A DNA stretch of 64,000 nucleotides from NCBI GenBank assembly GCA_965227295.1, contig OZ245742.1, forward strand, positions 2,336,001-2,400,000. Reading direction: 5' to 3'. Below, piece after piece: positions 13,624 through 45,666 of the stretch. The translations under genes were made by a program, and so were the position numbers. Below the pieces are notes generated by a model, which was given only the letters and a program-made list of their open reading frames with translations, was not told where the DNA came from and searched no databases. This DNA comes from Leptonemataceae bacterium (GTDB taxonomy: Bacteria; Spirochaetota; Leptospiria; Leptospirales; Leptonemataceae). The first letter of the stretch is position 1, and each line of letters begins with the position of its first letter.

Positions 13624-16600
13624 ATGAATTTCCGTTTCGCATTCCCTCGATCATTCCTGTCCCTGCGGCGGCGCTATCGGCGCTTCGCCCGCAAATCCAG
13701 ACTCCACCGTCGTTCCCTCAGTTCGTTCATGTCACTGCTCTTTCTCGTGCAGTTCGTCCTCGCGCCGACGGGCGTCTTCGCGCAGACGTTCGATCGTCTC
13801 GATGAGGATGTGAACAAGAATCGCATCGGCGATTACGCGAACGCCGTCGAGGGCGCGGATGACGAGGATGATTGGAATGAGTTCGTCGGCAGCGGTGCGG
13901 ATTTGTTGCGCGCGGAGTGGGAGTATCGCGCGGATCTGTTGCTCGAACAGGAAGTGACTGCCGGCGCGGCGCGGGAAGACCTCGAAGCGGAGAAGGCCCT
14001 CGCTCGTGAAGCCTGGGAAGCGGAACTGGACGACGAGATCGATCAGCGGCGCGGTCGGTGGCGGGCACGCACGGCGGCGCAGTCCCTCGACTCGTTGCTC
14101 GATGACATCGATTACGACGAACTGGTCGCCGCGGTGAACGATGCGAACGCGCTCATGTTCACCGACGCGGACGATGCGGCGACTCGCGTGGCGGCGTGGG
14201 ACGCGATCGCGGGGAATCGCGCGGCGCTTGCGAAGGCGGCGTGGGAATCGCAGCTGGACGCGGAGATGGCGGCGCTGCAATCGCAGGGCGTCGCGCTGGG
14301 TGCCGAAGAACAGGCGGCGTTTCTGAGCGAGCTGGAGCGGCAGCGTTCGCTGGCGGAGTCTGTCTATAAATCCGAAGAGAGTGTTTTCGTAACTTCTGCG
14401 CGGCGTAAGTTTGTAACCGAGGCGAATGCCGGCGATGACCTGGCGCGGGCCCTGGCGCAGAGCACGGACCCCGCCGAGATCGCGCGTTTGCTCGTGCAGC
14501 AGACCGAGCTGGAGATGGAACGCCTGGGCGTGTTACCGGGCGATGTGCGGTTTGACGGTGTCGATGCGCAGTTGATTCTGACCGGCGCGGGGGATTATCA
14601 GGACCAGGTCTCGCAGGCGCTCGAGGCCGGGCAGTCGGCGTGGAAGTCGGCGATCGATGAGTTGATTGCGCGCAAGATCGGCTTTGATGAGCAGGTGGCG
14701 GCGTCGCGCCAGGCCGGGGAGAACCAGTGGGCGACGGCGTATACGACGATCTTAGATGCGCGTGAAACGTGGTTAGCGGACGTCGAGGCGCAGATTCAAC
14801 GTGGTCTCGAAGCCTGGGACGCGGCGGAGTCCGGGCTCGCGGAGAACCGGCAGCTCGCCGAAGAAGAACTCGCGCGGCTGATCGAGAGTGATCGGCGGGA
14901 GTTTCAGGAACACAACCGCGGCATCGGCCAGCTGGTGAGCGGGGCCTCGCAGACGCTCGAAACGATCGTCGAAAACCAGCGCTGGTTTCAACACAAGATC
15001 GCCGATCTCCAGGCCGACATCGTGCGTTTGAACGGGGAATCGGAGAGCTTCGCCGACGGCCTGGCCATCGGCGGCACGCCGGAGTGGACGGCCTGGTATA
15101 ACGCGCATCGGACGGATCATACGAACGCGGAGATGCAGGAGCGGCAGAATCGCATCAACGTCTATACCGGAGAACTGAACTACTGGAACAGCCTCGAAGC
15201 GGAGTACCGGCAGATCATTACGGACGCCGAGAGCGTCGTCCACGACCAGGACATGCGCGACGGCGGTAGCGGGCCCGGCTATTTTCACGATGACGGCACC
15301 GAGGGCGACGTGCTGCTCTTAACCGCCACGGAGTTTGAGTTAAAGCTGGCCCGGGCGCGCCTGGCGGTGCTCGAAGAAGAACGCAGTCGCGCGAAAGAGG
15401 TCTATGACTACGCGCTGGCCGCGACGAAGTTGAGCGCCGCGGAGATCGAGACGCAATTGGCGACCGCGAAGGACGCCTATGATCTGGCGGAGACCGAGTA
15501 TTTGACGGAACTCTCGGCGCTGAACGGCGGCGGTTCGCAGAGCCTTACGCGGGTGGGGCTCTCCGATGAAAGCAGTCGCGCGGCGGGGGAGACGACGGAC
15601 CTCGGCCCGACGCTGCTGGACGACGTGAACACGCGGGCGGCGGAACTGGAAACGGAGGCCCTGGAACTGGAGCGGGCGCGCACGGCCCTGGATAACGCGC
15701 GGCAGGCCTACGAACAAACCGTAAAGCTCCAGGTGTTAATTCAAAATCCGCAGATGTTAAGCGACATCGGCCTGTTGTCCACGGACCCGTACGAAGTCAA
15801 CGAGGACGGCGAGAACGAGGGCCTGCGCTACGAGATCTTCAAGGCCGAAAAGGATCTGGCCGAGGCGCGGGAAAAGATGCGCCAGCAGGAGAAGGCCTAC
15901 GTGCGCCTGCTGTACGAACGCGAGACGGCGCTGCGCAGTACGGGCTTTTTTAATCAGACCAACGAACGCATCATCTTACACGAGGAGACGAAGGATCGCC
16001 TGGCGGAGTTGAGCGCGATCATCGGCGGCGGCGATGCGCTCGAGGACAAACTCACGGCGCTCGCCGCGGGCACCACGCTTACGGATCTCTACGGCAACCA
16101 GGCGGCGGACGCGCTCCGGGATCGCATTACGGAACTGGCGGACGCTCTTGCGAACGCGGCCGGGCCGGTAACTTCGGAAACGCAGAACTTAAACACGGGC
16201 CTCGGCGACTTCGGGCCGGCCCACGCCGTGTTGGACGCGAACTTCACGGGGGCGGAGCGCGCAAGACTCACGCAGTACGCGGACCGGGTGGACGGCGTGC
16301 TGGACGCGCTTGCGGACATTAGCGGGCTCGACTGGACCGGTCTGGGTCTGCCGGACATGCGCGCGCTGGCGACTTCGCTCCGGGACCATTCGACGGAACC
16401 GGGCACGCTCGCCGCCGACTACAGCACAGCCTTTAATGATTTGCAAACAGAACTTACGGCGTACCAGGCCTACGCCGCGGCGAACGCGGGGGCCGAAGCG
16501 AGCGCGGACTACCAGGCGCGCACGGCGGCCGTGTTGATTGCGACGGATGAGTATCGCCTGGCGGCGGCACGCTACGAACAGCGTTACCAGCTCGCCCGGA

Positions 16601-19600
16601 GCGCGCAGGCGCAACTGGAGACGTTGCTGGATCGCGCGCTCACGAGCGGGCCGATTCTTACGGATGCAACGTTGACCGGGGACGCGCGGAGTGCGGCCCT
16701 CGCGACGATCACGGCGCAGAAAGACGAACACACGGCCGTGAAGGCGGAAGCGCTCGCGGCGATCGAGTCCGTGGACGCGGGTTTCGAGGCGCTGGTGGAG
16801 GCCTTTACGAATCACGGTGAACGGTTGGGCGAGTATCGCACGGCCCTCGGGGAACGCAATCTGGCCTACCGTGAGGCGGGGGATTTCTTAACCGAACTGC
16901 ACGAGAACTTACGCGGCAGCCTCGCGTCCCAGCGTTCGCAACTGGGTTTTCTGCTGGATGAGAACGCGGACGAGGCGTTGCTCGAATCCATGGACGCGGA
17001 ACACCGGCGGGGCCTCGCGACGGCGGCGGCGGAGACGAACCTGCGGGCGATCGAACTGCTCGAGGGTTATCTCGGCGTGGATCGTGACGTGAATGTGCTG
17101 TTGATTGAAGTGACCGAGGACATCAACCATCGTCTGGCAAACTATGACGCCACGGACGCGGGCCAGCGGCGGGAGCTGACGGCGCTGCGGGCCGTGGAGC
17201 AATACGTGGGGCGGAGCGCCAATCTGCTGGCGAATCTGTCGGAGGACGAGCGCGCGGAGTTGCTCGCGGGCCTGGCGGACGAGCGGGACTTCGCGATCGC
17301 TCTGCGGGATTTCTACGTTTCGGACGGCGTGATGGACGACGCCGAACAACTGGCGATTCGCAGCGGCGGCAACCCGGAAGAACGGCGGTTGCTGTCGGCG
17401 TACTTCAACCCGCCGGCGCAGATGATGTTCGGTGAGGCCGCCTTCGGCGCGACGGCGGCGGAATCGTACTTAACTTCTCAACACCGTAGGTTTGCGGAGC
17501 AGGTGCGCGCGGGGCTGATCCAGAGCGCGATTACGGATCGGTACCACGAGGAGCAGGAAAACAAGATCACCGGCCTGATCCAGGAAATGAAAACGGCCGT
17601 GCCGGCGCTCGCGAGTCTGTCCGCCTCGCAGCTCTACAACGACAGCGAACCGGTGGATCCGAGCGGCCTCGCTCACGATACGGACGCAGAGGACGCGCGC
17701 CGGGCGATTCTCGCCTCGCTTTTGAGTGCGGCGGGCAGCGAAACCGGCGATCGTCTGACGGCGTTGTATGACATTGCGCAGCTGGAAACGATCTACGGGC
17801 CGGCGATTGCCGTGGAAGTGTACACGGACCTCGCCCGGGTGGTGGACGGTTACGGGAGCGCCGGGCAAGAACTGGTGCGCGCGTCCCAGGCGATTGTCGA
17901 CCAGGCCGCGGAGTTCGACGCCGAAGTGGACGCGCTCTTAGATGCGTACGATGCAAAGTTAAGCTACGAAGGGCAACGGGATCGCGTGGCGGCGGCGCTG
18001 GCGCTTTTGGAGTACGAGGACCCGGCGAGCGGTTCGACGGCAGCCGTGGGGCAGGCGGACGTGGACGCGCACGTGGCGAACCTCGACATTCCCGGCGGCG
18101 ATGATCCGGCGGTGGATCATCCCGCGGACTGGACGCCGGTGGACGATACCGACGGGGACTCGCCGGGAGATGCGGGCTGGGATCCGTCGTACGAAACGGA
18201 AGTTTTTGTGCAGCCGTACGCGGGGCTCGACGCGAGCGAACTGGAACAGGATCGCGACGACCTGAATACAGCGCTCGCCGATTGGGACAACAAACGCACG
18301 GAGCTGGATACGGCGATTGCGACGTACCGCGCGGCGAAGGCGACGTTCGACGCGTTCGTGGCGGCGAACCCCGGCAGCGAGGGCACGCCGGCCTACGAGG
18401 CCGAGATTACGACCTATGCCGCAGCCGTGAACGATATGTACTTCGCGTACCGGGAGCATAATAACTTTTTTACGGCTCTCGAGTTCGTGGCGGAACGCAG
18501 TGCGGCTTCCGGGGCGACATTTTTCGCGGCGGCGCAGGCGATCGATGCGAGCGCCGTGGTAACCACGGAAGAGTCGGCGTTCTTAAGTGCGGCGGATGTA
18601 TTGTTAACGGAGCGGGACGACCGGGCGCAGACGGAGTTTGATTTTACGCAGGCCGCGGTGGACGTGGGCACGGCGCGCAACCGTTACACGGAGGCGGAGA
18701 GCGCGCTCGCGACGGAAACGACCGAGGCGGATGATTTTATTGCGGACCTGGGGGACCGGGTGGATGTACGGATCAGCGCGGTGAGCACGGACGCGGTGAG
18801 CGCGAATGAGTTGATCGACGTGCTTGCGGAGCTGCGCCGGTTTTTTACGGAGAAGCAGGCGCGCGGGGAGGAGATCAATCCGACCATCGTGAATTCGCTG
18901 GAAGCGGCCGGCCAGGTGCTGGACGAACTGGCAGCGCTCAAGGATTACCAGGCGCGGGGCGCGAGCGTGAGCGTGGAGGATGCGCGGCAGGAACGGACCG
19001 ACGCTCAGGAAGAGAGCGAGCAGATGCAAAAGTTCGGTGAGGTGCTGTTAGAGCTACAGCAGTTCATTGCGAACACGGAGGCGGCCGGCGCCGGCCTGCA
19101 CGAGCAGGGCGCGAAGATCAAAGAGCTGCTCGCGAAGTACGAGAAGGCTAAAGACGATTACGGCAGCGTGTATACGTTCAGCGCCGAAGTGGAAGACGCG
19201 ATGACGCTCTTGCGCGATCACGCCTGGGCGCAGCACAAACGGCAACTGGTGGACGCGTATCTTGCAAAGCGCGGGCAGCTGAGTGTGGACGAGTTCATGG
19301 AGGACGTGGTGGAGGGCCGCTTCTTTAGCCAGCCGGTGAACCCGAATCAGACGGAAGCGCCGACAGTAACGTTCGGCGGCGGGGTTGCGCCGGAAGCGGA
19401 AGAAATCAGCGGCGATTTCCTGGGCCAGACCCTCGACGCGGCGCAGCTAAGTGAGGTTCGCGCACTGTTAAGCGAGTACGCGGCGCGGGCGCGGATCGAC
19501 GACGCCGGCATTGTGGCGGACATTGACGCGTTGCTGGCGACGGAAGACGCGGCGGTGCGCGCGGCGATCGAAGACGAGGCACTGGTGACGGTCTTTAATA

Positions 19601-22600
19601 ACTTCAACAGCGCGAACGCCGTGGGGGTGGGCAATCATGCGCAGCTTCCGGATGTTTTGAAAAACTACGGCCTCGTGAGCGCGTATGAAAGTTACGCGGT
19701 GTTGCTGCAACTGGATCTGGACGACGCCGACGACCGTACGCTGGCGATGCAACGCTTCCTGGACACGATGACGACGGAGAACCGCGCGGCGGCGGAGCCG
19801 GTCTTAAGTGAATATCTTACGAACTTTGACGCGCGAAACCCTTCGTTTTACCTGCCGGCCGAATTGAAAGCGCGGCACGCGAAAGAGCGCTACTTTGCGA
19901 TGCGCTACACGGACGAGCTGAGCCCGGGGGACGTGACGGCGCTGAACGACTGGCTGGCCGCGGAGAAATACGACGCGGGCGTGAGCGGGGCCGTGGGTGA
20001 AGCGGTGCGCACGGCGTACATTCTGGATAACTACTATGGTGAGAGCGCCGACGATTACTTAGATTCTATTGATGCGGACTTAACGGCGCTCACCGGGACG
20101 GGGGTGAATGCGACGGAACGACAGGCGTTCGTGCTGGGGCTCACCGGATTGTTGAGCGCGGCCGGGGACGCGTACGTGGAGCCGGAGGCGATGATCGCGG
20201 GGGAGGTTGTGTATGACAACTTTACGTTCGCGGACAACACGCAGGCGTTGAAAGAGGCGCTGCGCAACGAACAGATCGCACACACGGTGGAGCTGGCCGC
20301 GGCCGAACGCGCGGCGGTGCGGGCCGGGTACTTTTATGATTATAAGAGCGGGGCGCGGACGATTCGTTCGTTCAAGAGTTATGTGAACATCGGCCTGGGC
20401 GGTCTCGCGGAACCGGACGAGGCGACGCAGATCGCGGGGCAACTGGCGGAGCTGGAACATCAGGCGGAGCACCGCCTGGGAGCGTTCGTGGGTTTGGTGG
20501 AGCAGTACTCGAGCTTCGCGTACAATCCGGACCCGGCGTACGACAACAACCTGAACATCCGCGATACGATCGCCGAGATCAATACGGACTTTGTGCTGCA
20601 AGACGGGCAGTACGCGAAGAACCCGGACGGCAGCTACGTTTTTGAAGGCGGCTTAAATAACACTCAGGTGCGGTTAGACGAGTACGTGAACGCGAACACG
20701 GCGGCGTTTACGGCGGCGGACCGCGACGCCTACGCCCAGGTGCAGAAGTGGGAAGGGCAGGTGGATCAACTGCAGGAGACGATCGTTACCGCCGGCCAGG
20801 AGGCGGTGATCGTGAGCAACGCCCTCGGGACCTACGGCTCGGACGTGGGGGCGATAACGAACGCATTGCAAGGCGCGCGGGAGGAGTTTGAGCAACGCGA
20901 GAGAGACTTCGGCGAGGCGGAAGAGGAGTACGAGAACGCCGAAGACAACCTGCGCGACGCGCGCAACGCGTATCGGGCGCAGCAGGAGCTGGTGCTCACG
21001 AATTACAATGCGCTAAAGTCGGCCGAGGAAGAGTTAGACCGGCTGAGCGGGCTGCATGATCAGGCGGTGCTGGAGGAGTACTCGCAGCAGACGAACGAGC
21101 AGGGCGAGGTGGAGACGATCGGCGATACACTGGAAACGGTGCAGGCGCGTTATGAAGCGGCGGACGAGGCTTATCAGACTCAACTGGAAAAGATCCAGGC
21201 GCTCGAAGAGAAGTTAGACCGGCAGGTGACGAAGGCGGAGCTGGCCGCGGCGGCGGAGGTGCAGACGAATCGCCAGGAGACGGAAGACTGGGCCATGCAC
21301 GCGATGCGGTTCTCGCGCGCCGAATCTATATTAGAAGATAAGATCAACGATCTGCATGTGCAGATCGACAACCTGAAAGGCCAGATGGAGTACGCGGGCC
21401 TGGGGCAACACTTTGATATATCGCGGAGTCGCTTCGTCGGCAAACGCCAGGACCTCGACGGATACCTGGATTACGGGAGCGCGGCCTACATCGACAGCGA
21501 ACGCATGCATCGCGCACGGTACCGACACTTAGAAGGATTTTTGCGCGGGGAGATTGGTCCGTGGGATTTGATTTACAGTTCGCTCGGCGGCATCTACGCG
21601 AAACCGTATCTGGGAGTGACGATCAACTTCACGGAGGCAAGCGGCGGAATATATTACACGGATGTACCGGGCTGGAGCGAGGGCCTGCGCGTAAACAGCG
21701 GCGGACGGTACGATCTCTACGGCTTTGCGCAGGAGTACAACCAGGGCAAGACCGGTACGAATGATATTCTTTTGAATCTTGTAAAGGATCAGTTTCCCAC
21801 CGCCTGGGACGGCGAGGCATGGGCGTATGCTCGCGCAACGACGGACGCGGCGAGTTTCAACAACGGCATGACGGCGTTGTACAACAGCGACGTCGCGGGA
21901 CAGGCGGTGATCTACGCGGCGATGGGCGCGGCGGGCCTGGGATTTCTGTTTCAGTTGTATGCGAAGGATACGGCTTTTAAGGATCAACTGGATCGTGCGA
22001 TGGATCGGCTGTACGGATTGCCGACGACGAACCTGGTGCAACAGGGCAACGAACTGAAGAACCTGTACGCGGAACTGCACCGGCTCACGGACATAGACAG
22101 CGTGGAGAAACTGCGGGACGTGCTGGACGATCCGGAGTACGGCTTAACCGCGGATGATGTGGCGTTAATCCAGGGCAGCGGAACGTTAGATCAACTGATC
22201 TGGAAGGGCGGCAAAGAGGACTTAAGCCTGGATGATGTGGTGGGCGCGAACGGCCTGCCGATTGCGCAGGATAAGGCGATTCATGATGAGTTTGGATTCT
22301 ACGTGCGGGACGGGGAGTTCAGCGCGGGGAACATAACCGCGAATCCGACGGGGACGGACAAGTACGGACGGAGAACCGCACTGATGGTGAGCGCCGATGA
22401 ATTCACGGACGCGCTTGCCGCGATGAGCCAGACACAGTATGAGATCGAACGCGAAGAGTATTTCAGAGCCGCGGAGACAATGACGGAAGACCGCGTTCAG
22501 GCGGACACGGTGACGATCCTGGATGAACGCGAAGAGTTCTATGGCACGTTGATGCAACAGGCCGCCAGCGTGGGCGTGCAGTTCGAGATGTACCGCGCAC

Positions 22601-26256: not shown

Positions 26257-26263
26257 TATCACC

Positions 26264-26716
26264 ATGCTTGACCTGGAAGGAATAAGAACTCGCTTCAAAT
26301 CAACTGATCGCGAAGTTCGCATCGCGCAGATTCATACCGTGGGAGATCATATCTACCCTCGCGGCGAACCACAGGAGATATATATTGATAACTTTGACGA
26401 AATTATCGATTTCCTAATTGGAGTGGTCGGTTACGAAAAGGATGAGGATGTCCGAGAGGAAGTTTTAACGGCGTTGTTCTATGCTTGCTCTTCCAGTACG
26501 CGAATTGAGAAGCATGACATATCCGCACTCCTTGAGGTCCTTTCCGACCTGAGTGACCAATCGCTGGAGTATGCCCTATCCTGCATTGGCTTTACGCATG
26601 ACCCTCAGCATTTGGAAACTCTAAGGCGGTTCCTGGATCATACGTCGCCAATCGTAATGGACGCTGCACACGAAGCTATTTTTGAGATCGAAAATAGAAA
26701 GAACCGGGAGCTGTAA
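26264..26716 (+). CDS. HEAT-repeat-like candidate immunity protein
   Basis: Starts 7 nt after the toxin stop; helical repeats (DEDVREEVLTAL, SPIVMDAAHEAIFEI); no signal peptide. Confidence 0.7.
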   Translation: MLDLEGIRTRFKSTDREVRIAQIHTVGDHIYPRGEPQEIYIDNFDEIIDFLIGVVGYEKDEDVREEVLTALFYACSSSTRIEKHDISALLEVLSDLSDQSLEYALSCIGFTHDPQHLETLRRFLDHTSPIVMDAAHEAIFEIENRKNREL

Positions 26717-26782
26717 TGCCGAAAACCTATCTCAGGTGACCTCCCGCCATTCATAACGATCATGACTCCCTCGCACGTGTCG

Positions 26783-27066
26783 CCGATTGTAGTTGCAAAC
26801 GTAGATTGCTCGTCGCATACTTGCGAAAATGTGCCCAACAGGCACACCGAAATGTCTGATGTAATGGAGACGTTTCGGATGAGATCAGAGGATCTTTAAC
26901 AGGCAAGCAGTGATAGTCTGAACGGACTGACTGCGGCGAGAAGAAACAGCAGAGGTTCGCCTCTGCCGAAACGATATGCTGAATTCCGCACACGTGTGCG
27001 GAATTCGCCGCTCCGTAAGCGCGGACCGTTCAGTTCTTTGCGGCTAATATCTGATTCACAAGCGTT
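26783..27066. repeat. Junction element copy A (core only)
   Basis: Near-identical to the cores of copies B-D; palindrome at 26981-27006; fused directly to cassette 1. Confidence 0.9.
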
Positions 27067-30123: not shown

Positions 30124-30130
30124 GAGAAAG

Positions 30131-30439: not shown

Positions 30440-30463
30440 TTCCTCAGTGGGAGTGATGTTCGT

Positions 30464-30706: not shown

Positions 30707-30717
30707 CGGTTCTGAGG

Positions 30718-31245: not shown

Positions 31246-31331
31246 TAGTGTTTTATCGATGCTCTCCTTTACTTCGTCAACTGGAATTGGTCTATGAAAA
31301 TTGAAAATCTTTTTGGATGTGTCGAATAGGG

Positions 31332-31839
31332 TGTAAGCTTGAAATACTCGTCGACGCCTCCAGGCGGCCCCACGCCGGGTTATCCCTTGCGAGTCTTTGA
31401 ATGAGCCGGATTTCTTCGACTGGAATTCGCGGCCGGCGCGGTCGATTGTAGTTGCAAGGGAAGATTGCTCGTAGCCTACTTGCGAAAATGTGCCCAACAG
31501 GCACGCCGGAATGACTGCTGTAACAGAGACATTTCGGATGAGATCAGGGGATCTTTAACAGGCAAGCAGTGATAGTCTGAACGGACTGACTGCGGCGAGA
31601 AGAAACAGCAGAGGTTCGCCTCTGCCGAAGCGATATACCGAATTCCGCACACGTGTGCGGAATTCTCCCTTCGAGAGTCGGGGCCGCTGAGTTCTTTGCG
31701 GCTAATGTCTGATTCACAAGCGTTAGCGATGCGGAGGGTGGCGCGCAGCGCCAGTCTCGCGTCTTCGCGAGACCGCAGCGAAGCGGAGCCCGTAGCAGCG
31801 CGACGGCCCGCCGCCTCCGCGGCGCGGCGGGCCGGAACG
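31332..31839. repeat. Junction element copy B (IS end + transposase scrap + core + hairpin module), interrupted by the intron
   Basis: Begins TGTAAGCTTGAAATAC; minus strand reads RPRIPVEEIRLIQRLARDNPAWG; palindrome at 31640-31665. Confidence 0.9.
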
Positions 31840-33751: not shown

Positions 33752-36700
33752 ACGGCGAGGCCTGGGCCTATGCGCGCGCAACGACGGACGCGGCGAGTTT
33801 CAACAACGGCATGACGGCGTTGTACAACGCCGACGTTGCGGGACAGGCGGTGATCTACGCGGCGGGGCTGGGATTTCTGTTTCAGTTGTATGCGAAGGAC
33901 ACGGCGTTCAAGGATCAACTGGATCGTGCGATGGATCGGCTGTACGGATTGCCGACGACGAACCTGGTGCAACAGGGCAACGAACTGAAGAACCTGTACG
34001 CGGAACTGCACCGGCTCACGGACATAGACAGCGTGGAGAAACTGCGGGATGTGCTGGACGATCCGGAGTACGGCTTAACCGCGGATGATGTGGCATTAAT
34101 CCAGGGCAGCGGAACGTTAGATCAACTGATCTGGAAGGGCGGCAAAGAGGACTTAAGCCTGGATGATGTGGTGGGCGCGAACGGCCTGCCGATTGCGCAG
34201 GATAAGGCGATTCATGATGAGTTTGGATTTTATGTGCGAGACGGGGAATTTTCGGCCGGCAATATCACTGCGAATCCGACAGGGACGGACAAATACGGCC
34301 GCAGAATCGCACTGATGGTGAGCGCCGATGAATTCACGGACGCACTCGCGGCGATGTCACAGACGCAGTACGAGATCGAACGCGAAGAGTACTTCCGGGC
34401 AGCAGAGACAATGACGGAAGACCGTGTACAGGCGGACATGGTGACGATCCTGGATGAACGCGAAGAGTTCTATGGCACGTTGATGCAACAGGCCGCCAGC
34501 GTGGGCGTGCAGTTTGAAATGTACCGCAAACTCGCGGAAGACTATCACGGCGAAGGCGGCGTGGTAGACCAGGTGGCGGAGCTGGAGATCCAACAGCGAG
34601 TCGCATCCCAGAGACACGAATGGGACCTGCGCATGGAACAGTTCCGCAAGAAACGCCAGGAGTGGGGTGAAAACATTGCGCAGCTTACGAACGTGGGCGA
34701 GCAGAAGTGGAGCGACATGACCACCGAGATGGCCACGGCATGGAACGAGTGGCGGAAAGACTTCGACGCCGAAGCTAAGGCAGCGGAAGATCTGTACCTC
34801 GAACGTATTTCGGAAGCGATTGTAGACGAGCAGGAGTGGACGCAGGAATTCACAACGCTGGCGGCGCAAGGGGCGGACGAGCAGACGTTAAGAGAGCTGT
34901 ACGACGAAATCAATGAGATGGTGACGAATCTCAGAAGCGGCCTAGCGGCGGATATGCAGGTGGAGATCAACGCGAATGAGATCCTGAACCGCGTGCTGGC
35001 GAATAAACCGGACACACTGAACGAAAGCGTGGTGATGGCGGGGGAGTATGCCAACACGCAGATTTTCCTGGATGAGCTGAAGGACCAGAACTTCGACAAC
35101 AGCATTCAGGATCGTTATGATGATCTCAATGAACGTTACGGAGAAATGGCGCAGCGGCTCGTTAGACTGCAAAGCCTGGATAGTCTGTACGGATTGATTG
35201 ACCTGTTCGATGAAACGATCGCAGAAGCGAACGCCAGATTACAGTTGCAGATGGACCAGAAGATGGGCCAGACGAACTGGGTGAAGATGGGCGACTTGTA
35301 TACGAAGCAGATCAAAACGGCACAGGCAGTGCTTACGGGACAGCCGAGCATTCCCGTGTTTGCGCCTTCGTTCCACGATTACTTTTACTTGAAGCCGGAC
35401 CTCCGCAGTGAAGCGGTGGTGAAAGACTCGGAAGGCAAAGAGTGGAACCTAACAGACACTGAGTCCATATTAGCAGACGGCGGACCGAGCAGCGCGGAAC
35501 TGGAGAGCATGGTGCGCCTGGTGCGCAACAAACTGGAGAAGGAGTTCGAGCAAACCTACGATCCGGATGAGGAGGTGGACTACGAGGGCACCAGTGGATT
35601 GGTGTTCATTAACTGGCAACAGGCGCTGGCCGATGCGAGTGCGGCGGCGATTAACCCCTCCACGTGTAACTTAGCGGAAAGCATGGATGAATGCGCCCGG
35701 AACATTATGCAGTCCGGGTATACCGTGGGCCTTGTGGAAGGCGGAACGTTTGGACGCCACCACTTCGAGGAATACTACCGCGCACTGACAATCCGCAACT
35801 TCTTCGACCAGATGGAAGCAGACGGTAGAGCTATGCGCGAGAGTACCGGTGGACGCATGGGCCGGGACTTCGGGACGAACTTAACGGCCTTGCACCGTGG
35901 TGCGGTGCGGAACATGAGTTCCGCTCTCGATGTGCTGGAACGTAATTCGAAGTACGTCCAGATGCTTCAGGTTGCGAACAGGCAGTTACCGATTGCTCAG
36001 GCGCAAATCGGCGCGGCGCGGCGCGGACTGGATCAATACGAAGACATGAACCAGCGTGTGCGGGTGGGACTGAGCAAGGGCTGGCAGCGGAACGACGATG
36101 AGATCGACGCCGTGATTAAAGTCGGCGGCACGATTGTGGCGGGTGTGCTGTATGCCGTCTCGTTCGTCTTTCCTCCGGCGGCAGCCATCGCTTCCGGTGT
36201 TCTTGCAGCAGTAGGTTCGTACTCCGGAGTGCGGGGTAGCTACGAAGGCGGCACGAAAGGCGCGCTGGCGGGAGCGGCGAGTGTGGTGCCGGCGATCGTT
36301 AGTAAAGGTGCGGTGAATACAAACTTAAGCTACACGTTTCAGGAGGGCTGGAGTGTCGGCGTGGGCGCGGAGGTTTCGAAAGGCGTCGGCCTTGGTGTGA
36401 GCTATTCGGAACAAGCGGGTTGGGGTGGTAGCATCTCTCTCAGCGGCTCTCAGGGTGTCGGTCTTGATTTCAGCATTGGTGAGCAGGGTCGTTACGGTGT
36501 GGGCTTGAGTGTCGGCGGCTTATGGCAGACAGGGGATGCGAGTGGCGGTGCAGACCTGGGCTGGCGCGTTGGTTACAACACGGGGCCGGAAGGCGAAACC
36601 TATAGTGTCGGTCTGACGGGGTATGGCGGAGAGAAATACGGTCCGAATGGCAACGTCGGTATCGGTGTAACCTACAATCAGAATTTAGGTAACGGCTATT

Positions 36701-38217
36701 ACATTAGTGGCGGAGCGAACGGCGGCGCCGGGTCCGGTTACTTCGGTGGAACGGCAAGCTGGAACTGGACGCGTTTCGGCGGCAGTTCGGCCACGTTCGG
36801 TCTGACGTATAAGCCGCCGCGGCCTGATGATGACGGCAGTCCGATCGATACGCCGGAGGAGAAAACGGCGTTGGATATGTTTCTCGCCGCCGCACGGCGT
36901 GAGGCCGGTGAGGTCTGGGATGATGTCGGCGGCGGGCTTGGATGGCTGGGCGAGCAGGTGGCCGGCGGGTTTGGATGGTTGGGTGGTGCCGTTACTGGCG
37001 GTCTCGCGAGTGTGGCCGGAGCGCTGGGTTGGGAGAGTGGTGCGAATTGGTTGGCAGGGAATGGGTATGTCGACAACGCCACGGCGGAAGCGAATCAGCT
37101 GGCGGAGTTTCGGGCTTATGCCGCGAGAAAAGCGGAATTGGAACAATTAAAGCTAGGGCTAAGAGAAGGGAAAGTCCTAGTTAGAGAAACGGAAGATGGC
37201 CGTTGGATCTTTGTGGATGTCGAAACAGGAGAGTTCTATACTGACGATCCATTCGTTGGAGGACTCGTTCGTTCCGATGAAGAAGGTGTCTTCTATCTAG
37301 CTGGTCCGGTGGTTCCCCCGGCTTTGGCGGAAGCTATCGCGAAAGTGGAACAAACTATCGAAGATAGTGAACCCTTCCCGGATGCTGGAGATGCTGGCGA
37401 CGTTCTCGAGACAAGCGAAAAAATTCTTGAACAAGCAGAGCGACTGAAGAATTTCCGTAAGGCGTTGGGTGCACTCGGCAAGCTTCTTTCCGCGTATGAT
37501 ACTATTAATGATTCGGTGACAAGCATTAAGACACTGTCTGAGCGAGCAGAGGTGCAGGAGGAAATTGAGAGACTTGCCTTGAAGGAAATAGTTCATGACG
37601 AATGGGCCCGGAATACTGAAGCACGATACCGAGTGTCCCAGCGACTAAAAGAGCTAAACTCGGAACTGGGGAAAGTTACGACTACGGAGCAGCGGGAAAC
37701 TCTGACTCGGAGAATCCAACGGTTAGAGAGATTCCGTGATGAGGTACTATTACCTGCTAAACAGGAGCTTCTAATCCTAGAACGATTGAATCAATCTGTC
37801 GATAGAAGGCATAGCGGAGTCGGGGCGGCATTCAACGACTACTTAGAAATCGCCTATCCTTCAAAGGGAGCAGATCCATTCTACGATCCCCATTCAACAT
37901 TCGATTATGATGGGAACCCTCATGAACTGAATCTGACTGATCAAAGGAAGTTGAGGCTTCGGAGTGAGTATTACTCTGCTGTCGCATTGGGAGAGCAATA
38001 CTTCAATGAGACAGGTGCGAATGTGCGTTCACGGAGCATCTTTGGATGGCTTCCTTTTGGGGAATGGGGAAGCAAGGCTGGGAGAAAGCTCGATCAGCGC
38101 GGGTACGCGAGTCTCGATACGACTTTAAAGGGCTACTTGTGGCAAATGGCTTATCGGGCAGAAACTCTTCCAAACTGGCATGTGCGATATATCGATTTCG
38201 TTTCTGATAACTACTAA
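33752..38217 (+). CDS. Orphan toxin cassette 2 (longest; first ATG at 33811) with alternative helical C-terminus
   Basis: Matches the giant gene from 21809 (GEAWAYARA) to 25119 (ESGANW), with a 9-nt in-frame deletion; then a different tip. Confidence 0.88.
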
Positions 38218-39197
38218 TGAAGATCTATATAGTCGGTTTCAGTAGTCTATGCTTTGCTATTCTTGGGGGCATCCATTTCATTCTAGCTGATAGTTTGCTA
38301 GAAGTTGATTCTGGACGACCCGTTCGAAGCATCTTGGTGAATCGGGATCCATCTTTTGTGGCCATAGGTTCCGATTCAGTAGGCTTTCGTAGCAATATCG
38401 CAGTATTCTGGCCTGGTAAGACAAGACCGACTCGGCTTTCTGGAGAGCGGGCTGTATATGCGATGGTTTTTCATCAAGGCTCTAGAACTCTTTATGCTGC
38501 AGGTGAATTCGGATATATTGAGAGCTTTCGATTGCCGACTGGCAATAGGCTTAGGCCGATTAGTTTTCCCGATGTCGAAATTCTGGCCTTAACCAAGGCA
38601 GGAACTGACAAACTGATAATTGCCGGGCACAATACGCACAGTAATCAGCCGTACTTGGGCCTGTACAGTATTCGACAGAAAAAGGTGAGCAACTCTGTCT
38701 TGTTCGCTGAAACGCGTGGGCAGGCGTTCGTATCTGACGTACATTATCATGAGAAATCAAAGTTACTTTTGGTTATGTTGCAAAGGCGAATGTACGTCTA
38801 CGAACTACCGGATTTTGATAGAAAATATGACAGACAGTTGCGAGGTACAGTGATTAGGCAGGCCGTTTTTTCCAAAGATGGTGGAACAATCATCTGGGGC
38901 GGTCTGTTTGGCGAGCTTGGCGCAATCCAGATTGCAGCAAGCGGTTCGAGCTTGGTTAAAGCAGCTCATGAAGGAGAAATCTTGGGGTTGGCTGAGAGCG
39001 ATGACGGTCTACTCGTCACATCTGGAGATGATAAACAAGTCAAGGTGTGGTCTTCTTATTCTGGCGGTCTTGCGTTGGTCGGGACCTGGCAGAGCCCTAC
39101 GGTTGTTACAGAAATAGTCGCGGAAGCTGGGCGTTTGTATCTAGGTATGGCGGATGGAAACCTTGAAGTGCTAGCGATGGAAGATTTTATGAAGTGA
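38217..39197 (+). CDS. WD40-like beta-propeller with N-terminal signal/anchor; candidate immunity protein of cassette 2
   Basis: TAATG overlap with the cassette stop; AHEGEILGLA...LVTSGDDKQVKVW repeat. Confidence 0.75.
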   Translation: MKIYIVGFSSLCFAILGGIHFILADSLLEVDSGRPVRSILVNRDPSFVAIGSDSVGFRSNIAVFWPGKTRPTRLSGERAVYAMVFHQGSRTLYAAGEFGYIESFRLPTGNRLRPISFPDVEILALTKAGTDKLIIAGHNTHSNQPYLGLYSIRQKKVSNSVLFAETRGQAFVSDVHYHEKSKLLLVMLQRRMYVYELPDFDRKYDRQLRGTVIRQAVFSKDGGTIIWGGLFGELGAIQIAASGSSLVKAAHEGEILGLAESDDGLLVTSGDDKQVKVWSSYSGGLALVGTWQSPTVVTEIVAEAGRLYLGMADGNLEVLAMEDFMK

Positions 39198-40349
39198 AAT
39201 AGTCAAGATTCCATCTGACACTCCGATATAATTTGTATCGGAGGAAAGAGATGACAGCAGAACAAAAAATCGTAAAGCACCGGGTGGGCATCTTGAGGCT
39301 GGCCCGTACTCTGAATAACGTTGCAGAGGCTTGCCGGGTGATGGGCGTATCACGCGATACGTTCTACCGGTATCAGCGGTTGTACGAGACCGGAGGCGAA
39401 GAGGCCCTGAAGGATCTCACGCGGCGCAAGCCGAACAAGAAGAACCGGATTCCGGCGGATGTGGAAGACGCGGTGATCGAGTTCACGTTCGAGAAGCCGG
39501 CGCACGGTCAATTGCGCGTGTCGAATGAGCTGCGCAAGCGCGGCGTTTCGATCTCACCGGGCGGCGTGCGTCAGGTCTGGTTGCGGCACGACATGGAGAC
39601 GTTCAAGAAGCGTCTGAAGGCCCTGGAAGCCCGCGTCGCGCAAGAGGGGATCATTCTCACCGAGGCACAGGTCGCGGCGCTTGAGAAAGGCCGCCAGGAC
39701 AAAGAAGCGCACGGCGAGGTCGAATCGCACCACCCCGGCTATCTGGGCTCGCAGGACACGTATTACGTGGGCAATATCAAGGGCGTGGGGCGGATCTACC
39801 AGCAGACCTTCATCGACACGTACGCTAAGGTCGGCTTTGCAAAACTTTACGATCGCAAGAACGCACTGACGGCGGCCGACTTGCTGAACGATCGTGTGTT
39901 GCCGTTCTACGCGGACTACAACATCCCGCTGCTGCGCGTGCTCACCGATCGCGGCACGGAGTACTGCGGCAAGCCGGAGAATCACGAGTACGAGTTGTAC
40001 CTCGCGATGGAGGACATCGATCACACCAAAACCAAAGCGCGGCATCCGCAAACGAACGGCGTCTGCGAACGCTTTCACAAGACGATTCAGGAAGAATTCT
40101 ACGCCGTCGCGTTTCGCAAGAAACTTTACTCAAGCATCGAGGAGCTGCAAGCCGATCTGGATGAATGGATGCTCGAGTATAACCAGGAACGGACGCACAG
40201 CGGCAAGTACTGCTTCGGCAAGACGCCGGCGCAAACGTTCGCTGAATCCATCGCCGTGGCGCGTGAAAAGATGCTGCATAAACAGCATCAGGTATCGACC
40301 TGATCATATCTGACAGGCAGGAGTGTCAGATCGGGTGTTGGCTAGTACA
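39195..40349 (+). mobile_element. IS481-family insertion sequence with 7-bp target duplication TATGAAG
   Basis: Imperfect 26-bp IRs TGAAATAGTCAAGATTCCATCTGACA / TGTCAGATCGGGTGTTGGCTAGTACA; TATGAAG at 39188-39194 and 40350-40356. Confidence 0.9.
39251..40303 (+). CDS. IS481-family DDE transposase
   Basis: HTH (NVAEACRVMGVSRDTFYR), GSQDT, LTDRGTEY, PQTNGVCERFHKT; GGAGG RBS before ATG 39251. Confidence 0.95.
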   Translation: MTAEQKIVKHRVGILRLARTLNNVAEACRVMGVSRDTFYRYQRLYETGGEEALKDLTRRKPNKKNRIPADVEDAVIEFTFEKPAHGQLRVSNELRKRGVSISPGGVRQVWLRHDMETFKKRLKALEARVAQEGIILTEAQVAALEKGRQDKEAHGEVESHHPGYLGSQDTYYVGNIKGVGRIYQQTFIDTYAKVGFAKLYDRKNALTAADLLNDRVLPFYADYNIPLLRVLTDRGTEYCGKPENHEYELYLAMEDIDHTKTKARHPQTNGVCERFHKTIQEEFYAVAFRKKLYSSIEELQADLDEWMLEYNQERTHSGKYCFGKTPAQTFAESIAVAREKMLHKQHQVST

Positions 40350-40370
40350 TATGAAGCGAGTACATTCGCA

Positions 40371-41034: not shown

Positions 41035-41607
41035 TGTAAGCTTGAAATACTCATCCACGCCTTCAAGCGGCTTCCCAATGATAAGTAGAATGCAGCCCGC
41101 CGAGCACAGGTCTTCGCAAGACCCGTACGTTATTTTTTTGGTGGCGGTTCTGTCTGACGGCCCTCCGGCGAACCGAGGTCCACAGACGCGTGCGTGCGGT
41201 GCCGATTGTAGTTGCAAACGTAGATTGCTCGTCGCATACTTGCTGAAATGTGCCCAACAGGCACGCCGAAATGGCCACTGTAACGGAGACGTTTCGGATG
41301 AGATCAGAGGATCTTTAACAGGCAAGCAGTGATAGTCTGAACGGACTGACTGCGGCGAGAAGAAACAGCAGAGGTTCGCCTCTGCCGAAGCGATATGTTG
41401 AATTCCGCACACGTGTGCGGAATTCGCCCTTCGAGAGTCGGGGCCGCTGAGTTCTTTGCGGCTAATATCTGATTCACAAGCGTTAGCGATGCGGAGGGTG
41501 GCGCGCAGCGCCAGTCTCGCGTCTTCGCGAGACCGCAGCGAAGCGGAGCCCGTAGCAGCGCGACGGCCCGCCGCCTCCGCGGCGCGGCGGGCCGGAACGC
41601 CCAGAGC
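41035..41607. repeat. Junction element copy C (IS end + transposase 3' scrap + core + hairpin module; empty intron site 41599|41600)
   Basis: TGTAAGCTTGAAATACTCATCC; minus strand reads VLRRPVLGGLHSTYHWEAA; palindrome at 41400-41425. Confidence 0.9.
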
Positions 41608-41611
41608 AGCA

Positions 41612-44410
41612 GAAACAATCGCAGAAGCGAACGCCAGATTACAGTTGCAGATGGACCAGAAGATGGGCCAGACGCACTGGGTGAAGATGGGCGATGTGTA
41701 TACGAAGCAGATCAAAACGGCACATGCGGTGCTCACGGGACAGCCGAGCATTCCTGTATTTGCGCCGTCGTTCCACGACTACTTTTACTTAAAGCCGGAC
41801 CTGCGCAGCGAGGCGGTGGTGAAAGACTCGGAAGGTAAGGAGTGGAACCTAACAGACACCGAGTCTATATTAGCAGACGGCGGACCGAACAGCGCGGAAC
41901 TGGAAAGCATGGTGCGGCTGGTGCGTAACAAGCTGGAGAAAGAGTTCGAACAAACCTACGATCCGGATGAGGAAGTGGACTATGAAGGAACGAGTGGGCT
42001 GGTGTTTATTAACTGGCAACAGGCCCTTGCGGACGCGAGTGCGGCCGCGATTAACCCATCCACGTGTAACTTAGCAGAATCCATGGATGAATGTGCGCGG
42101 AACATTATGCAGTCCGGGTATACCGTGGGCCTCGTGGAAGGCGGGACGTTTGGACGGCACCACTTCGAGGAGTACTACCGCGCACTGACAATCCGCAATT
42201 TCTTCGACCAGATGGAAGCAGACGGTAGAGCTATGCGTGAGTCTACGGGTGGTCGCATGGGCCGGGACTTCGGGACGAATTTGACGGCCTTGCACCGTGG
42301 TGCGGTGCGAAACATTGACTGGGCGTTGAATACTCTGGAACGTAATTCGAAGTACGTCCAGATGTTACAGATTTCTCAAGGCCAGCCCCCGATGTTCCGG
42401 TCGCAAGTCGGAGCAGCAAGACGCGGGCTGAGTGAGTTTGACGACTTCAACCAGCGTGTGCGGGTGGGACTGAGCAAGGGCTGGCAGCGGAACGACGATG
42501 AGATCGACGCCGTGATTAAAGTGGGCGGGACCGTTGTTGCCGGGGCACTGTATGCACTTTCGGCTGTATTGCCATTCCTGGCACCCGCGTTAGTGCCCGT
42601 GGCCAGCGGAATTATGGCCGGGGTGGGTGCGTACTCCGGAGTGCGTGGTAGTTATGAAGGCGGCACGAAAGGCGCGCTGGCGGGAGCGGCGAGCGTGGTG
42701 CCGATGATAATCTCCAAAGGTGCCATCAACACGAACTTAAGCTACACGTTTCAGGGTGGCTGGAGCGCCGGTATAGGCGCGCAGGTTACCGAAGGTGTGG
42801 GTGTCGGTGCGAATTACTCGGAGCAGGGCGGCTGGGGCGGCAATGTTAGCATTGGCCTCGGCGATTCACCGCTCGCTCTTGATTTGAGCGTGGGCGAGTA
42901 CGGGCGTTACGGCGCGGGGCTGACGTACAGCTTTGTGAAGTCACCGGAAACTGCGAAGATTCAGAAACATCTGGGCCTGCGTTTTGGGTATGATCGTGGA
43001 CCGGAAGGCGTAACGTACAGCGCCGGTCTCGTGGGCAGCGTGGGTAACAAGGCCAACGGCTACGCCGGCGGCGGGAACATCGGTCTGACTCACAATCATT
43101 TGAACGGGACCGGCTTTTACCTCGGTGCGAGCGGCAGCGGCGGCGATTATTCGCAGGGCCTCGGCGGGCAGGCGAGCTACAACTGGAGTCGCTTCGGTGG
43201 CAGCTCTACGACCTTCGGCATTACGTATACCCGTCCGCCGGAGGAACACGGGAGTCCGCTGGACAGCCCGTATGAAAAAAATATGTTCGACACGTTCATG
43301 GCGGCGACACGCCGGAATGTAGATGAGTTCTGGGGTGATGTCGGCGGTGGGCTTAGCTGGTTCGGAGAGCAAGTTACGGGCGGTCTCGCAAGCGTGGCCG
43401 GGGCTCTGGGCTGGGAGAGTGGCGCGAACTGGTTGGCGGGTAGAGGATATGTCGACAACGCCACGGCAGAAGCGAATCAGCTTGCGGAGTTTCAGGCGTA
43501 TGCGCTGGAACGTGATACAGAGGAATTTATTCGGCTCGGTGTCCAGGACCGTGCCGTTCCAGTGGGGGAAACACCTGAAGGTAAATGGCTGTTCTATGAT
43601 CCGGTTACAGGAGATTTCTGGTCAGAGAACGGGGATGGTGGACTGAAGCTGGTAACCGAAGATGGTGAGGAAGTTCAGTACGTTCGGGGCAAGAAAAGTC
43701 GCAAGGGAAATAGGTTCCGGTCGGGCAAAAGCTCTGGGGTCAAGAACTCGAAGCGACAATATGCCAAGGCCAAAGAATTCTTTGCGAATCAGCTCAAGAA
43801 TGATTCAAATGCAAAAAGACATCAGGAAAAACAATATAACAATGCGAATATGACAGCGGAGGATAAATTGAATCTTTCTCGGTCACTGGCTGAAAAGCAC
43901 TTGCGAGAAAACTCATCGCAACCAGGAACTCGACCGACTTTACTGGGCGAAGTCATTGCGGAGGGATTAGTATGGTCAGAGGAAATCTTGGCTCAGAAAA
44001 CTATGGATGCTCTTGATAGCGAGTATGAAGATTTAGTTGAATTGCATAGAGAATCGTACACGTCAGGATCGGTAACGACGGATGCGCCAGGACTGGGGGA
44101 CTTAGTAAGGACTCAACTATCAAATAATCGCAGAAAGATCCTTGATCGCGAAGTAGCTAGAGTGGTTGAGAGTACGGAAGTCGCATGGAGCCTCGAAAAT
44201 GGACTCGATCCGGCTACAGCTATTGATCGAGCTATCGACAGTAGCGTGCGATCCTTTGAGTCGAGTATCAGACCGGCTCCTCTGCCGGGTGAGAATACCT
44301 ATTGGAAAGACATCTGGTATGATTCGTTAACTACGGTTGAAGTTAAAATGATCAAGAATCGCGCGTTAAAAGAGTTGATGATTCGAAACCGAAAGAGGAT
44401 GGACCGATGA
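41612..44410 (+). CDS. Orphan toxin cassette 3 with a third alternative C-terminus
   Basis: Matches the giant gene from 23281 (ETIAEANARL); the reading frame is open back into the junction element (ORF 41456). Confidence 0.85.
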   Translation, partial: ETIAEANARLQLQMDQKMGQTHWVKMGDVYTKQIKTAHAVLTGQPSIPVFAPSFHDYFYLKPDLRSEAVVKDSEGKEWNLTDTESILADGGPNSAELESMVRLVRNKLEKEFEQTYDPDEEVDYEGTSGLVFINWQQALADASAAAINPSTCNLAESMDECARNIMQSGYTVGLVEGGTFGRHHFEEYYRALTIRNFFDQMEADGRAMRESTGGRMGRDFGTNLTALHRGAVRNIDWALNTLERNSKYVQMLQISQGQPPMFRSQVGAARRGLSEFDDFNQRVRVGLSKGWQRNDDEIDAVIKVGGTVVAGALYALSAVLPFLAPALVPVASGIMAGVGAYSGVRGSYEGGTKGALAGAASVVPMIISKGAINTNLSYTFQGGWSAGIGAQVTEGVGVGANYSEQGGWGGNVSIGLGDSPLALDLSVGEYGRYGAGLTYSFVKSPETAKIQKHLGLRFGYDRGPEGVTYSAGLVGSVGNKANGYAGGGNIGLTHNHLNGTGFYLGASGSGGDYSQGLGGQASYNWSRFGGSSTTFGITYTRPPEEHGSPLDSPYEKNMFDTFMAATRRNVDEFWGDVGGGLSWFGEQVTGGLASVAGALGWESGANWLAGRGYVDNATAEANQLAEFQAYALERDTEEFIRLGVQDRAVPVGETPEGKWLFYDPVTGDFWSENGDGGLKLVTEDGEEVQYVRGKKSRKGNRFRSGKSSGVKNSKRQYAKAKEFFANQLKNDSNAKRHQEKQYNNANMTAEDKLNLSRSLAEKHLRENSSQPGTRPTLLGEVIAEGLVWSEEILAQKTMDALDSEYEDLVELHRESYTSGSVTTDAPGLGDLVRTQLSNNRRKILDREVARVVESTEVAWSLENGLDPATAIDRAIDSSVRSFESSIRPAPLPGENTYWKDIWYDSLTTVEVKMIKNRALKELMIRNRKRMDR

Positions 44411-44940
44411 AGTCTATACCGTTAAGAACTACAATATTGATATTACTCTTGCTGATGCCGTGGACAGTCGACTGTCGGCCGCAAAGTGAAAACCACTCTA
44501 ATACAAGCTGTGAGATAAACATTGACTTCGAAAAGGGTACGAAGGAGTTCCCAATAGGTCAAAAGTTCACGCCTGAGTCAATACGAGCCTATGGATTTAC
44601 GAAGCTAGAAATGGGCGATGATTTTCTGGAAGGCTCAGGATTGCGAAATTTCTATCACAACGGCACCAAGACAATTCTGATTGCTTATTCCGATGAGGAT
44701 GTACTGGTTCATGTCTCTATCGAGGCAAAGGAAGACGTTTGCTTTCGGGGGCAACTGATTCGAGATCATAATCCGTACGCCTTTTACGAGGCCTTACAAC
44801 AGGCTGGAGCTTCCATTCCGATACAGGATGCAGATGAAATTCGAGACGGCTTTCGGGTTCCCGGGCCTCGGGTTGAAATTCGGGTGGTAACAGAAAACGA
44901 TTCGATACAGAGAATTTTAGTTAGTGAGTATGTCGAATAA
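44407..44940 (+). CDS. Exported/lipoprotein-like candidate immunity protein of cassette 3
   Basis: ATGA overlap; MKSIPLRTTILILLLLMPWTVDC signal. Confidence 0.7.
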   Translation: MKSIPLRTTILILLLLMPWTVDCRPQSENHSNTSCEINIDFEKGTKEFPIGQKFTPESIRAYGFTKLEMGDDFLEGSGLRNFYHNGTKTILIAYSDEDVLVHVSIEAKEDVCFRGQLIRDHNPYAFYEALQQAGASIPIQDADEIRDGFRVPGPRVEIRVVTENDSIQRILVSEYVE

Positions 44941-44996
44941 GTCAGATTGGGCTGCTGAATGCGACTCTGACTTTGTGTAAATAGATTCTTGCACTC

Positions 44997-45513
44997 TGTA
45001 AGCTTGAAATACACATCAAAGCCTCCAGGCGGCCCCACGCCGGGTTATCCCTTGCGAGTCTTTGAATGAGCCGGATTTCTTCGACTGGAATTCGCGGCCG
45101 GCGCGGTCGATTGTAGTTGCAAACGTAGATTGCTCGTCGCATACTTGCTGAAATGTGCCCAACAGGCACGCCGAAATGTCTGACGTAATGGAGACGTTTC
45201 GGATGAGATCAGAGGATCTTTAACAGGCAAGCAGTGATAGTCTGAACGGACTGACTGCGGCGAGAAAAGGCAGCAGAGCTTCGCCTCTGCCGAAGCGATA
45301 TGCTGAATTCCGCACACGTGTGCGGAATTCGCGTCTCGGTTCCCGGAGGATGTTCAGCTCTTTGCGGCTAATGTCTGATTCACAAGCGTTAGCGATGCGG
45401 AGGGTGGCGCGCAGCGCCAGTCTCGCGTCTTCGCGAGACCGCAGCGAAGCGGAGCCCGTAGCAGCGCGACGGCCCGCCGCCTCCGCGGCGCGGCGGGCCG
45501 GAACGCCCAGAGC
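44997..45513. repeat. Junction element copy D (empty intron site 45505|45506)
   Basis: TGTAAGCTTGAAATAC start; same transposase scrap as copy B; palindrome at 45305-45330. Confidence 0.9.
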
Positions 45514-45666
45514 CGCAGAAGCGAACGCACGCCTGCAACTCCAGATGGACCAGAAGATGGGCCAGACGAACTGGGTGAAGATGGGCGACTTGTACACGAA
45601 GCAGATCAAAACGGCACAGGCAGTGCTTACGGGACAGCCGAGCATTCCCGTGTTTGCGCCTTCGTT
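45514..45666 (+). pseudogene. Orphan cassette 4 stub truncated by IS
   Basis: AEANARLQLQ...VFAPSF matches the giant gene from 23289 and stops at the IS end (45667). Confidence 0.85.

Follow-up and report, generated by a model that had tools for sequence, protein, structure and literature searches.

A giant gene and the array of partial copies behind it, at positions 13624–45666 of a 64,000-nucleotide stretch of a Leptonemataceae genome (the window: positions 2,336,001–2,400,000, forward strand, of contig OZ245742.1, assembly GCA_965227295.1), very probably form a polymorphic toxin system, in which the C-terminal tip of the encoded carrier would poison a target, the adjacent gene would protect against it and tips would be swapped by recombination. 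We favour a role in competition between bacteria, on a long-stalk carrier that is a relative, not a member, of the TIGR04388 family. A constant 5' body, variable C-terminal toxins and toxin-immunity cassettes are the features of polymorphic toxins described in the survey by Zhang et al. (2012; PMC3482391). The first two of these, together with orphan cassettes downstream, liken the locus to the orphan arrays of Rhs, CdiA and MafB; it works like an Rhs/CdiA orphan array yet lies outside those carrier classes, having no RHS, FHA, LXG, VgrG, PAAR or MafB family in its Pfam listing and possessing a helical stalk and a built-in predicted barrel instead.

The full-length carrier gene (13624–26256, plus strand; database call P0001) encodes 4210 amino acids, as an initial annotation made from the sequence alone had estimated (about 4200); a longer frame, 13543–26256, encodes 4237, and residues are numbered here from its ATG at 13543, not from the database start. 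Self-comparison revealed four 5'-truncated copies, all on the same strand, at 27067–28580 (90.2% identity to the carrier), 33752–37079 (95.4%), 41612–43432 (76.8% over its whole length, rising to 95% at the 5' end) and 45514–45666, a 153-bp remnant (90.9%). The first three run into mutually unrelated tips, whereas the remnant has no tip and is interrupted by an insertion sequence (IS). Thus, the four copies had been counted correctly, although ‘near-identical’ does not describe the third copy as a whole and the fourth lacks a tip. Orphan module 1 (27067–30123) starts at carrier residue 3174 and continues into a new tip without a known family, module 2 (33752–38217) covers carrier residues 2756–3869 approximately before its new tip, and module 3 (41612–44410) starts at residue 3247 and has a diverged barrel and another new tip. 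Together with that of the full-length gene there are four unrelated tips in the window, and a coupled gene follows each of them (4/4), with, in order, a 7-nt gap, a 7-nt gap, a 1-nt overlap and a 4-nt overlap. The GC content of the partner genes is 0.43–0.47, against 0.62 in the carrier body. The initial annotation had therefore recognized the general layout and the coupling of lower-GC partners, which it took to be small throughout; one of them, a WD40 protein, has 326 residues.

The tip of the full-length gene (25150–26256) ends in an Ntox30 domain (PF15532, 25969–26244; 87 bits against a cut-off of 25), the only Pfam family listed for the carrier, with the RxH motif at residues 4174–4176 and THIP at 4230, as the initial annotation had proposed. 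RxH and THIP are the Ntox30 motifs given by Zhang et al. (2012; PMC3482391), and their table gives no immunity family for Ntox30, whereas a partner is predicted here: the HEAT-repeat protein (PF13646) encoded at 26264–26716 (+), a candidate Ntox30 immunity protein. The modelled complex of the tip with this partner scored 0.85 against 0.02 for the best control, passing a mark reached by 51 of 78 solved pairs and 2 of 108 mismatched ones; the runs agree in at least 97% of contacts, the partner has a pLDDT of at least 89, and two residues of the conserved motifs, R4174 and H4231, lie in the interface. The HEAT protein is accordingly predicted by modelling to bind the Ntox30 tip. Ntox30 is found in 2 of 301 genomes of the phylum. 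In the second (G421:C2, locus L087), from another family, it belongs to an unrelated carrier of 520 residues, behind which a helical partner is encoded that bears a weak likeness to the HEAT protein (pairwise E 5e-4). A search for longer homologs of the tip found none, which is weak evidence.

The partners of the orphan tips, all on the plus strand, are candidate immunity genes: a 102-aa protein with two hydrophobic stretches (30131–30439), the 326-aa WD40 beta-propeller with an N-terminal hydrophobic stretch (38217–39197) and a 177-aa protein with a lipoprotein-like N-terminus (44407–44940). These hydrophobic N-termini and membrane stretches, judged by eye, suggest targets in the cell envelope. 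In other genomes, 57 tips and partners were compared with Pfam, and the families above cut-off comprise PT-HINT (2), M23, lipase (2), C39, DUF7587 and Imm-NTF2-2, as well as TPR, ankyrin and MORN partners; relatives' partners include Imm35 or Imm-NTF2-2-like proteins. The host genome encodes two further full-length giant paralogs with orphan arrays of their own (G000:C1:750773–772385, plus strand, and 5004082–5026467, minus strand), which show weak matches to ADP-ribosyl cyclase, papain-fold and metallopeptidase tips and an Imm35 match above cut-off.

On the sequence evidence, comparison of paralogs and of species shows that tips are exchanged among carriers, as the initial annotation had supposed. 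Paralogs B and C of the host genome are 95.5% identical over 3,971 residues and end in unrelated tips. Among 53 tip regions compared across genomes, the main tip of G080 matches an orphan tip of G074 at 85.5% (and its own orphan at 97%), and the main tip of G067 matches that of G074 at 95.5%. The same MORN partner stands 3' of both the G080 main tip and the matching G074 orphan tip, so that, judging from the sequences, the partner travels with the tip between these genomes. Inside the window, orphan 2 and the main gene are identical over 690 nt immediately before their tips, in an alignment that is 95% identical elsewhere (P about 1e-12 under uniform mismatches), and we regard this block as a mark of recent recombination. 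Such exchange would proceed by homologous recombination within the shared stretch.

It is very improbable that the array is an assembly artefact joining alleles of different strains. Completeness of 93.6% and contamination of 3.5% leave some room for one, and among the contig pieces listed (92 further pieces are not shown) none bridges the first junction. Against it, the host genome is a single contig of 5.94 Mb (59.8% GC), the junctions are non-random and enclose unique passenger genes and, a stronger argument, the same layout is seen in the nearly closed genomes G074 and G080, of three contigs each. In the two sequencing runs that hold 25150–31330, depth is similar over the main tip and the orphan 1 tip (178 vs 214 and 17 vs 15), which is a weak argument because both runs come from one study, possibly the source of the assembly.

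The carrier represents a spirochaetal class of proteins, in agreement with the initial annotation. A 600-aa N-terminal query matched 48 of the 190 genomes of the class, the complete frames having mostly 3,500–5,100 residues, and phmmer returned 61 representatives; a word-indexed homolog search with the carrier, which found only itself and one paralog, missed these relatives. Named genomes with relatives (seven loci) are those of Leptospira alexanderi, L. borgpetersenii, L. alstonii, L. ellisii and L. gomenensis. For one relative, 10 of the 11 proteins returned bear a source name and all are annotated as ‘hypothetical’ or ‘uncharacterized’, among them those of L. weilii, L. inadai, L. stimsonii and L. 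yasudae. Of the 20 homologs fetched, 11 or 12 align in the same order with the carrier in each 300-aa block up to residue 3600, and at least one orphan module lies behind 11 of these 20 carriers (doubtful in G024 and G006).

A kinship with TIGR04388 (Lepto_longest), raised in the initial annotation, is borne out as homology and fails as membership. The TIGR04388 model (45-bit cut-off) matched neither the whole carrier nor four pieces of it nor six relatives, which rules the carrier out as a member. The host genome holds 13 true TIGR04388 genes, four of them clustered at G000:C1:5063716–5126838. HHalign of the N-terminal parts of the giants and TIGR04388 gave 98.6% (E 9e-16), and a profile of the giant N-terminus, run over 13,377 open reading frames (ORFs), placed the three giants first and the full set of 13 TIGR04388 genes next (E 6e-20 to 1e-4), with nothing but noise below them (E above 0.5; the best reversed control had 0.44). 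A C-proximal profile (hairpin and beta module) matched 8 of the 13 and two of their orphans, with no match in the reversed control; it missed the distant giants G020, G006, G189, G034 and G039, as well as the frames of G133 and G024, which are incomplete. By these sequence comparisons, the giants and TIGR04388 are homologous at two modules, the N-terminal helical domain and the hairpin-plus-beta module. Both families also have variable tips and orphan modules with the same junction repeat (see below), which precedes the orphan modules at three of the 13 TIGR04388 loci in the host genome. The carrier differs in its roughly twofold length and in the absence of a model match and of HINT from this copy. 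The TIGR04388 model presumably describes a HINT/intein before the tip; PT-HINT does precede the tip in the relatives in G073 and G066. That the carrier itself has no RHS, FHA, LXG, VgrG or HINT family had been noted correctly at the outset, as had the value of a search against TIGR04388 and toxin families, which returned Ntox30 and found no match to TIGR04388 and no family for the orphan tips. No sharing of tips between the giant carriers and the TIGR04388 genes of the host genome was found. TIGR04388 is present in 92 of the 190 genomes. At G074:C1:1108001–1188000 and 3365616–3390147, TIGR04388 copies without a gene start stand in tandem, each behind an rve transposase gene and a Flavo-1 match, and these regions contain a direct repeat of 15.3 kb that carries genes for a primase and a tyrosine recombinase.

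From the N-terminus, the carrier has a signal-peptide h-region (residues 58–83) and a helical domain (together 13693–14352; hydropathy, HHalign, profile ranking and modelling), a long, mostly helical stalk (14353–24000) that is collinear with the Leptospira homologs and whose helicity beyond residue 600 is deduced from composition, a hydrophobic helical hairpin (residues 3544–3582; 24172–24288) and a Gly-rich beta module (residues 3611–3783; 24373–24891), all on the plus strand. Residues 82–600 were modelled as all-helical (mean pLDDT 71, pTM 0.43); a fold search with this model gave no match at E up to 0.001, and an Atlas search with the N-terminal part and with orphan tip 1 gave matches only under 0.9. 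AlphaFold2 folded the beta module into 12 antiparallel strands (block pLDDT 56–84), predicting a membrane-type barrel, a fold match that says nothing about function. Its best match among known structures is AIDA-I (Z 14.6, rmsd 3.7, 168 residues aligned), nearly tied with LpxR, KdgM, BrkA and EstA, and Foldseek placed invasin on top, so that the best matches are autotransporter barrels and small porins. The likeness to type V autotransporters (AIDA-I, BrkA, EstA; invasin/intimin) lies in the predicted 12-stranded barrel (Z 13–15), whereas identity is about 10%, the carrier barrel is internal, with 3,600 residues before and 450 after it, and no autotransporter family was matched in the family searches of the carrier. 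The barrel presumably has a parallel in the FHA-2 domain of CdiA.

The hydrophobic h-region suggests Sec export of the carrier, after which the stalk of about 3,400–3,500 residues would keep the business end away from the producer. The hairpin and the barrel would then enter a membrane and let the C-terminal tip pass through, and the tip would poison the target while the gene behind it protects the producer, as is predicted for Ntox30 and supposed for the other tips. With some hesitation we favour the target's outer membrane as the site where the modelled barrel would act. There is an appreciable, if smaller than even, chance that it sits in the producer's own outer membrane in the style of an inverse autotransporter, with the stalk in the periplasm and the tip displayed and released. 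This would affect only the membrane-entry step and would suit the structural matches to autotransporter and invasin/intimin barrels and the failure to find a TpsB-type partner (PF03865 had no match in the host genome, where the search controls were equally blank). A helical part of 3,500 residues, however, would be hard to fit into a periplasm, and the barrel sequence varies with the cassette, identity being 66% in orphan 1 and 60% in orphan 3. A secretin is present in the host genome.

All truncated copies in the window are preceded by a repeated element roughly 400 bp long, the last 125 bp of which belong to a dispersed family. The presence of this repeat at every orphan start, the two additional giant paralogs, a group II intron and two IS types are absent from the initial annotation. 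The long form of the repeat, always on the plus strand, lies at 26782–27066, where it ends abruptly a few bases into its structured part, and, together with an IS end in front of it, within 31333–31839 (IS end TGTAAG...), 41037–41604 (structured part 41480–41604) and 44998–45509; a dispersed copy stands outside the array at 7968–8113 (+). The group II intron (31840–33723, +; RT/maturase 32275–33690) is inserted in the 3' end of the second of these. An identical intron at G000:C1:2020597–2022482 occupies the same position near the 3' end of another repeat copy, and such insertion behind hairpins is, we presume, reminiscent of class IIC introns. A 27-bp perfect palindrome within the long form (41400–41426 and 31639–31665) is possibly a protein-binding site. 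Behind the closing stem, most copies continue with CCA and a tail rich in A (e.g. 41596–41604), loosely resembling a tRNA end.

In the host genome as a whole, a profile of the dispersed family had 214 matches, 185 of them with a CGCCC end, which is followed by A in 151 of the 185. Some form inverted pairs (22 convergent, 14 divergent), and strand preference is slight (73 vs 48; 55 vs 77). All 14 orphan modules of the genome begin just behind a repeat on the same strand, a count obtained from 15 rows of partial carrier copies by leaving out an internal piece and a 55-bp 5' copy and adding one orphan detected only at the protein level. Nine start 3–28 nt behind a full repeat, one 28 nt behind the intron in the repeat end and one directly at a cut-off repeat, while the remaining three have carrier-like sequence right behind the repeat. 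The chance of a repeat at an orphan start is 6e-4 per site, and about 11 of the 14 junctions are independent.

For other genomes we used a covariance model trained on 20 copies that lie outside the arrays tested, though some may belong to other arrays. It matched 13 of 26 automatically merged orphan modules; after correction, with two G135 modules added from nucleotide-level starts and three rows discounted as not being separate orphan starts, 15 of 23 orphan starts lie at a repeat, one match being weak (E 0.065) and kin being included. The model had 20 matches in 754 kb of other loci; every one has the orientation of the carrier, and five lie away from detected junctions. A sister hairpin element of similar architecture was seen by eye before some orphans missed by the model (G080 and G133 junctions; G074 L063).

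The junction repeats of Leptospira are the Rfam motif Flavo-1 (RF01705); they exceed the gathering score at six junctions in G074 and G080, and all four in G135 fall short of it. The window and host-genome copies miss its 42-bit gathering threshold (150 of 384 candidates scored), while the window copies align with those of Leptospira and share with them terminal motifs, paired stems and a fold into the same three-way junction, in which compensatory pairs are seen. The window element extends beyond the Rfam model, adding a closing stem and a second hairpin. When 20 dispersed copies were aligned, 96.5% of cells were paired and double changes occurred at 6 of the 9 pairs, a result equalled in none of 500 shuffles, the structure itself having been derived from this alignment. 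A consensus fold of the MAFFT alignment of the junction copies reached only −0.78 kcal/mol with no compensatory pair; the repeat structure was therefore drawn from single folds and the dispersed-copy alignment. The function of Flavo-1 is given as unclear in PMC9723704, and a literature search found no link between it and toxin cassettes. The repeat may possibly spread via RNA. A reading of the repeat as an integron attC site was dropped on inspection by eye; two unassigned tyrosine recombinases scored far below the integron integrase cut-off.

How might orphans arise at this repeat? Incoming DNA would recombine by homology with the carrier at one end, its other end being joined illegitimately just behind the repeat; equally, a circle closed at the repeat could integrate by a single crossover. 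These models draw on homology-facilitated illegitimate recombination and on ISCR elements. By either route the old tip would come to lie farther downstream, with the repeat in front of it. A candidate enzyme is the product of a DUF1016_N/SNase-like gene found in 48 of the 190 genomes, often beside TIGR04388 or giant genes (e.g. G000:C1:767002–768012). Among 14 loci belonging to several genera, 9 have a same-strand repeat within 420 nt behind the gene, and 11 have a repeat match, always on the strand of the gene; no solved relative of the protein was found. That this gene and the repeat form an active unit that cuts and joins DNA behind the repeat and so stacks cassettes is a scheme that we consider rather unlikely. 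The chances are about even that the repeat is passive, marking deletion or exonuclease stops or a landing site of mobile DNA with no dedicated enzyme, which would alter only this last step of the scheme. Linkers of 3–28 nt, in which neither a constant cut site nor long microhomology is seen, speak for passivity, as do the location of most of the 214 matches far from toxin genes, the abundance of IS elements and introns in the arrays and the lack of a detectable Y1 transposase in the host genome. Yet a passive hairpin would be expected to be free of orientation, whereas the 14 host junctions and the 20 matches in other loci are all on the carrier strand, unlike the nearly strand-neutral dispersed copies, and the same-strand repeat after the DUF1016/SNase gene would be left unexplained. 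What probability remains goes to other routes, such as RNA intermediates. REP/RAYT and ISCR/IS91 systems likewise have dispersed structured repeats, partly in inverted pairs, and junctions at one end, REP/RAYT differing in the Y1 transposase not found here. A search for Y2 HUH enzymes, of little informative value, gave none either.

Several results weigh against the interpretation of the locus as a toxin system with the delivery and cassette stacking outlined above. For the three orphan tips there is neither a Pfam match nor a clear homolog among the 190 genomes (best E 3e-4), and most of the 57 tips and partners from other genomes are likewise without a Pfam match. The barrel model was built on 15 sequences and has a whole-model mean pLDDT of 57, no export partner was identified, 8 of the 23 orphan starts in other genomes lack a covariance-model match and the Y1 HUH transposase had no match in the host genome (93.6% complete), its control being positive in 6 of 14. 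The orphan tips without a toxin family could also be those of a variable surface protein or adhesin, non-toxic, or of an effector against eukaryotes such as protists; a Leptospiraceae toxin domain, PT8, also harmed fungi according to bioRxiv 2021.10.19.465003. We consider this improbable, given the coupled partner behind every tip and the occurrence of Ntox30, PT-HINT, M23 and Imm35, which belong to antibacterial polymorphic toxins.

Directly 5' of the carrier, a 171-aa protein with an N-terminal hydrophobic stretch (13089–13604, +) is a possible accessory gene. Copies of it (89% and 74% identity) also precede both other giant paralogs; the remaining loci fetched, with upstream flanks of only 1–4 kb, gave no match. 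Between orphan module 1 and the second repeat are passenger genes on both strands (30464–31330), an 80-aa ORF (+) and a TPM-domain gene (−). An IS481 element (39195–40350, +) has six copies genome-wide, and the rve_3-type IS that interrupts the remnant lies at 45668–46681 (−; transposase 45695–46612). The gene at 12265–12903 (−) encodes a lipoprotein that resembles Lsa25 and has an Lcl domain scoring under the family cut-off. Elsewhere in the genome, G000:C1:4547528–4556213 carries a dense cluster of at least 29 tRNA genes.

Our literature search, mostly without subscription papers, found no description of the giant carrier family, none of TIGR04388 by name and none of Flavo-1 at toxin junctions. 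It also found no interbacterial toxin system of Leptospira, apart from the toxin domain PT8 and a remark, in PMC4751964, on a HINT domain in L. interrogans LA_3725; a term search of PMC4758666 yielded nothing on these proteins.

The locus supplies a candidate Ntox30 immunity protein and three tips without known activity. With it, some of the longest genes of the class, labelled hypothetical, gain a testable role, and TIGR04388 joins them in one superfamily. To our knowledge, the origin of orphan cassettes is open for all polymorphic toxins; a fixed, oriented sequence at the junction, with a candidate enzyme beside it, makes the question directly testable. If the proposed scheme is true, each event would install a new tip and its immunity gene on the carrier and push the old ones downstream, leaving an ordered record as in an integron, and Flavo-1 would acquire its first function. 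The giants and TIGR04388 would then constitute a class-wide toxin superfamily whose tips are delivered through a built-in barrel.

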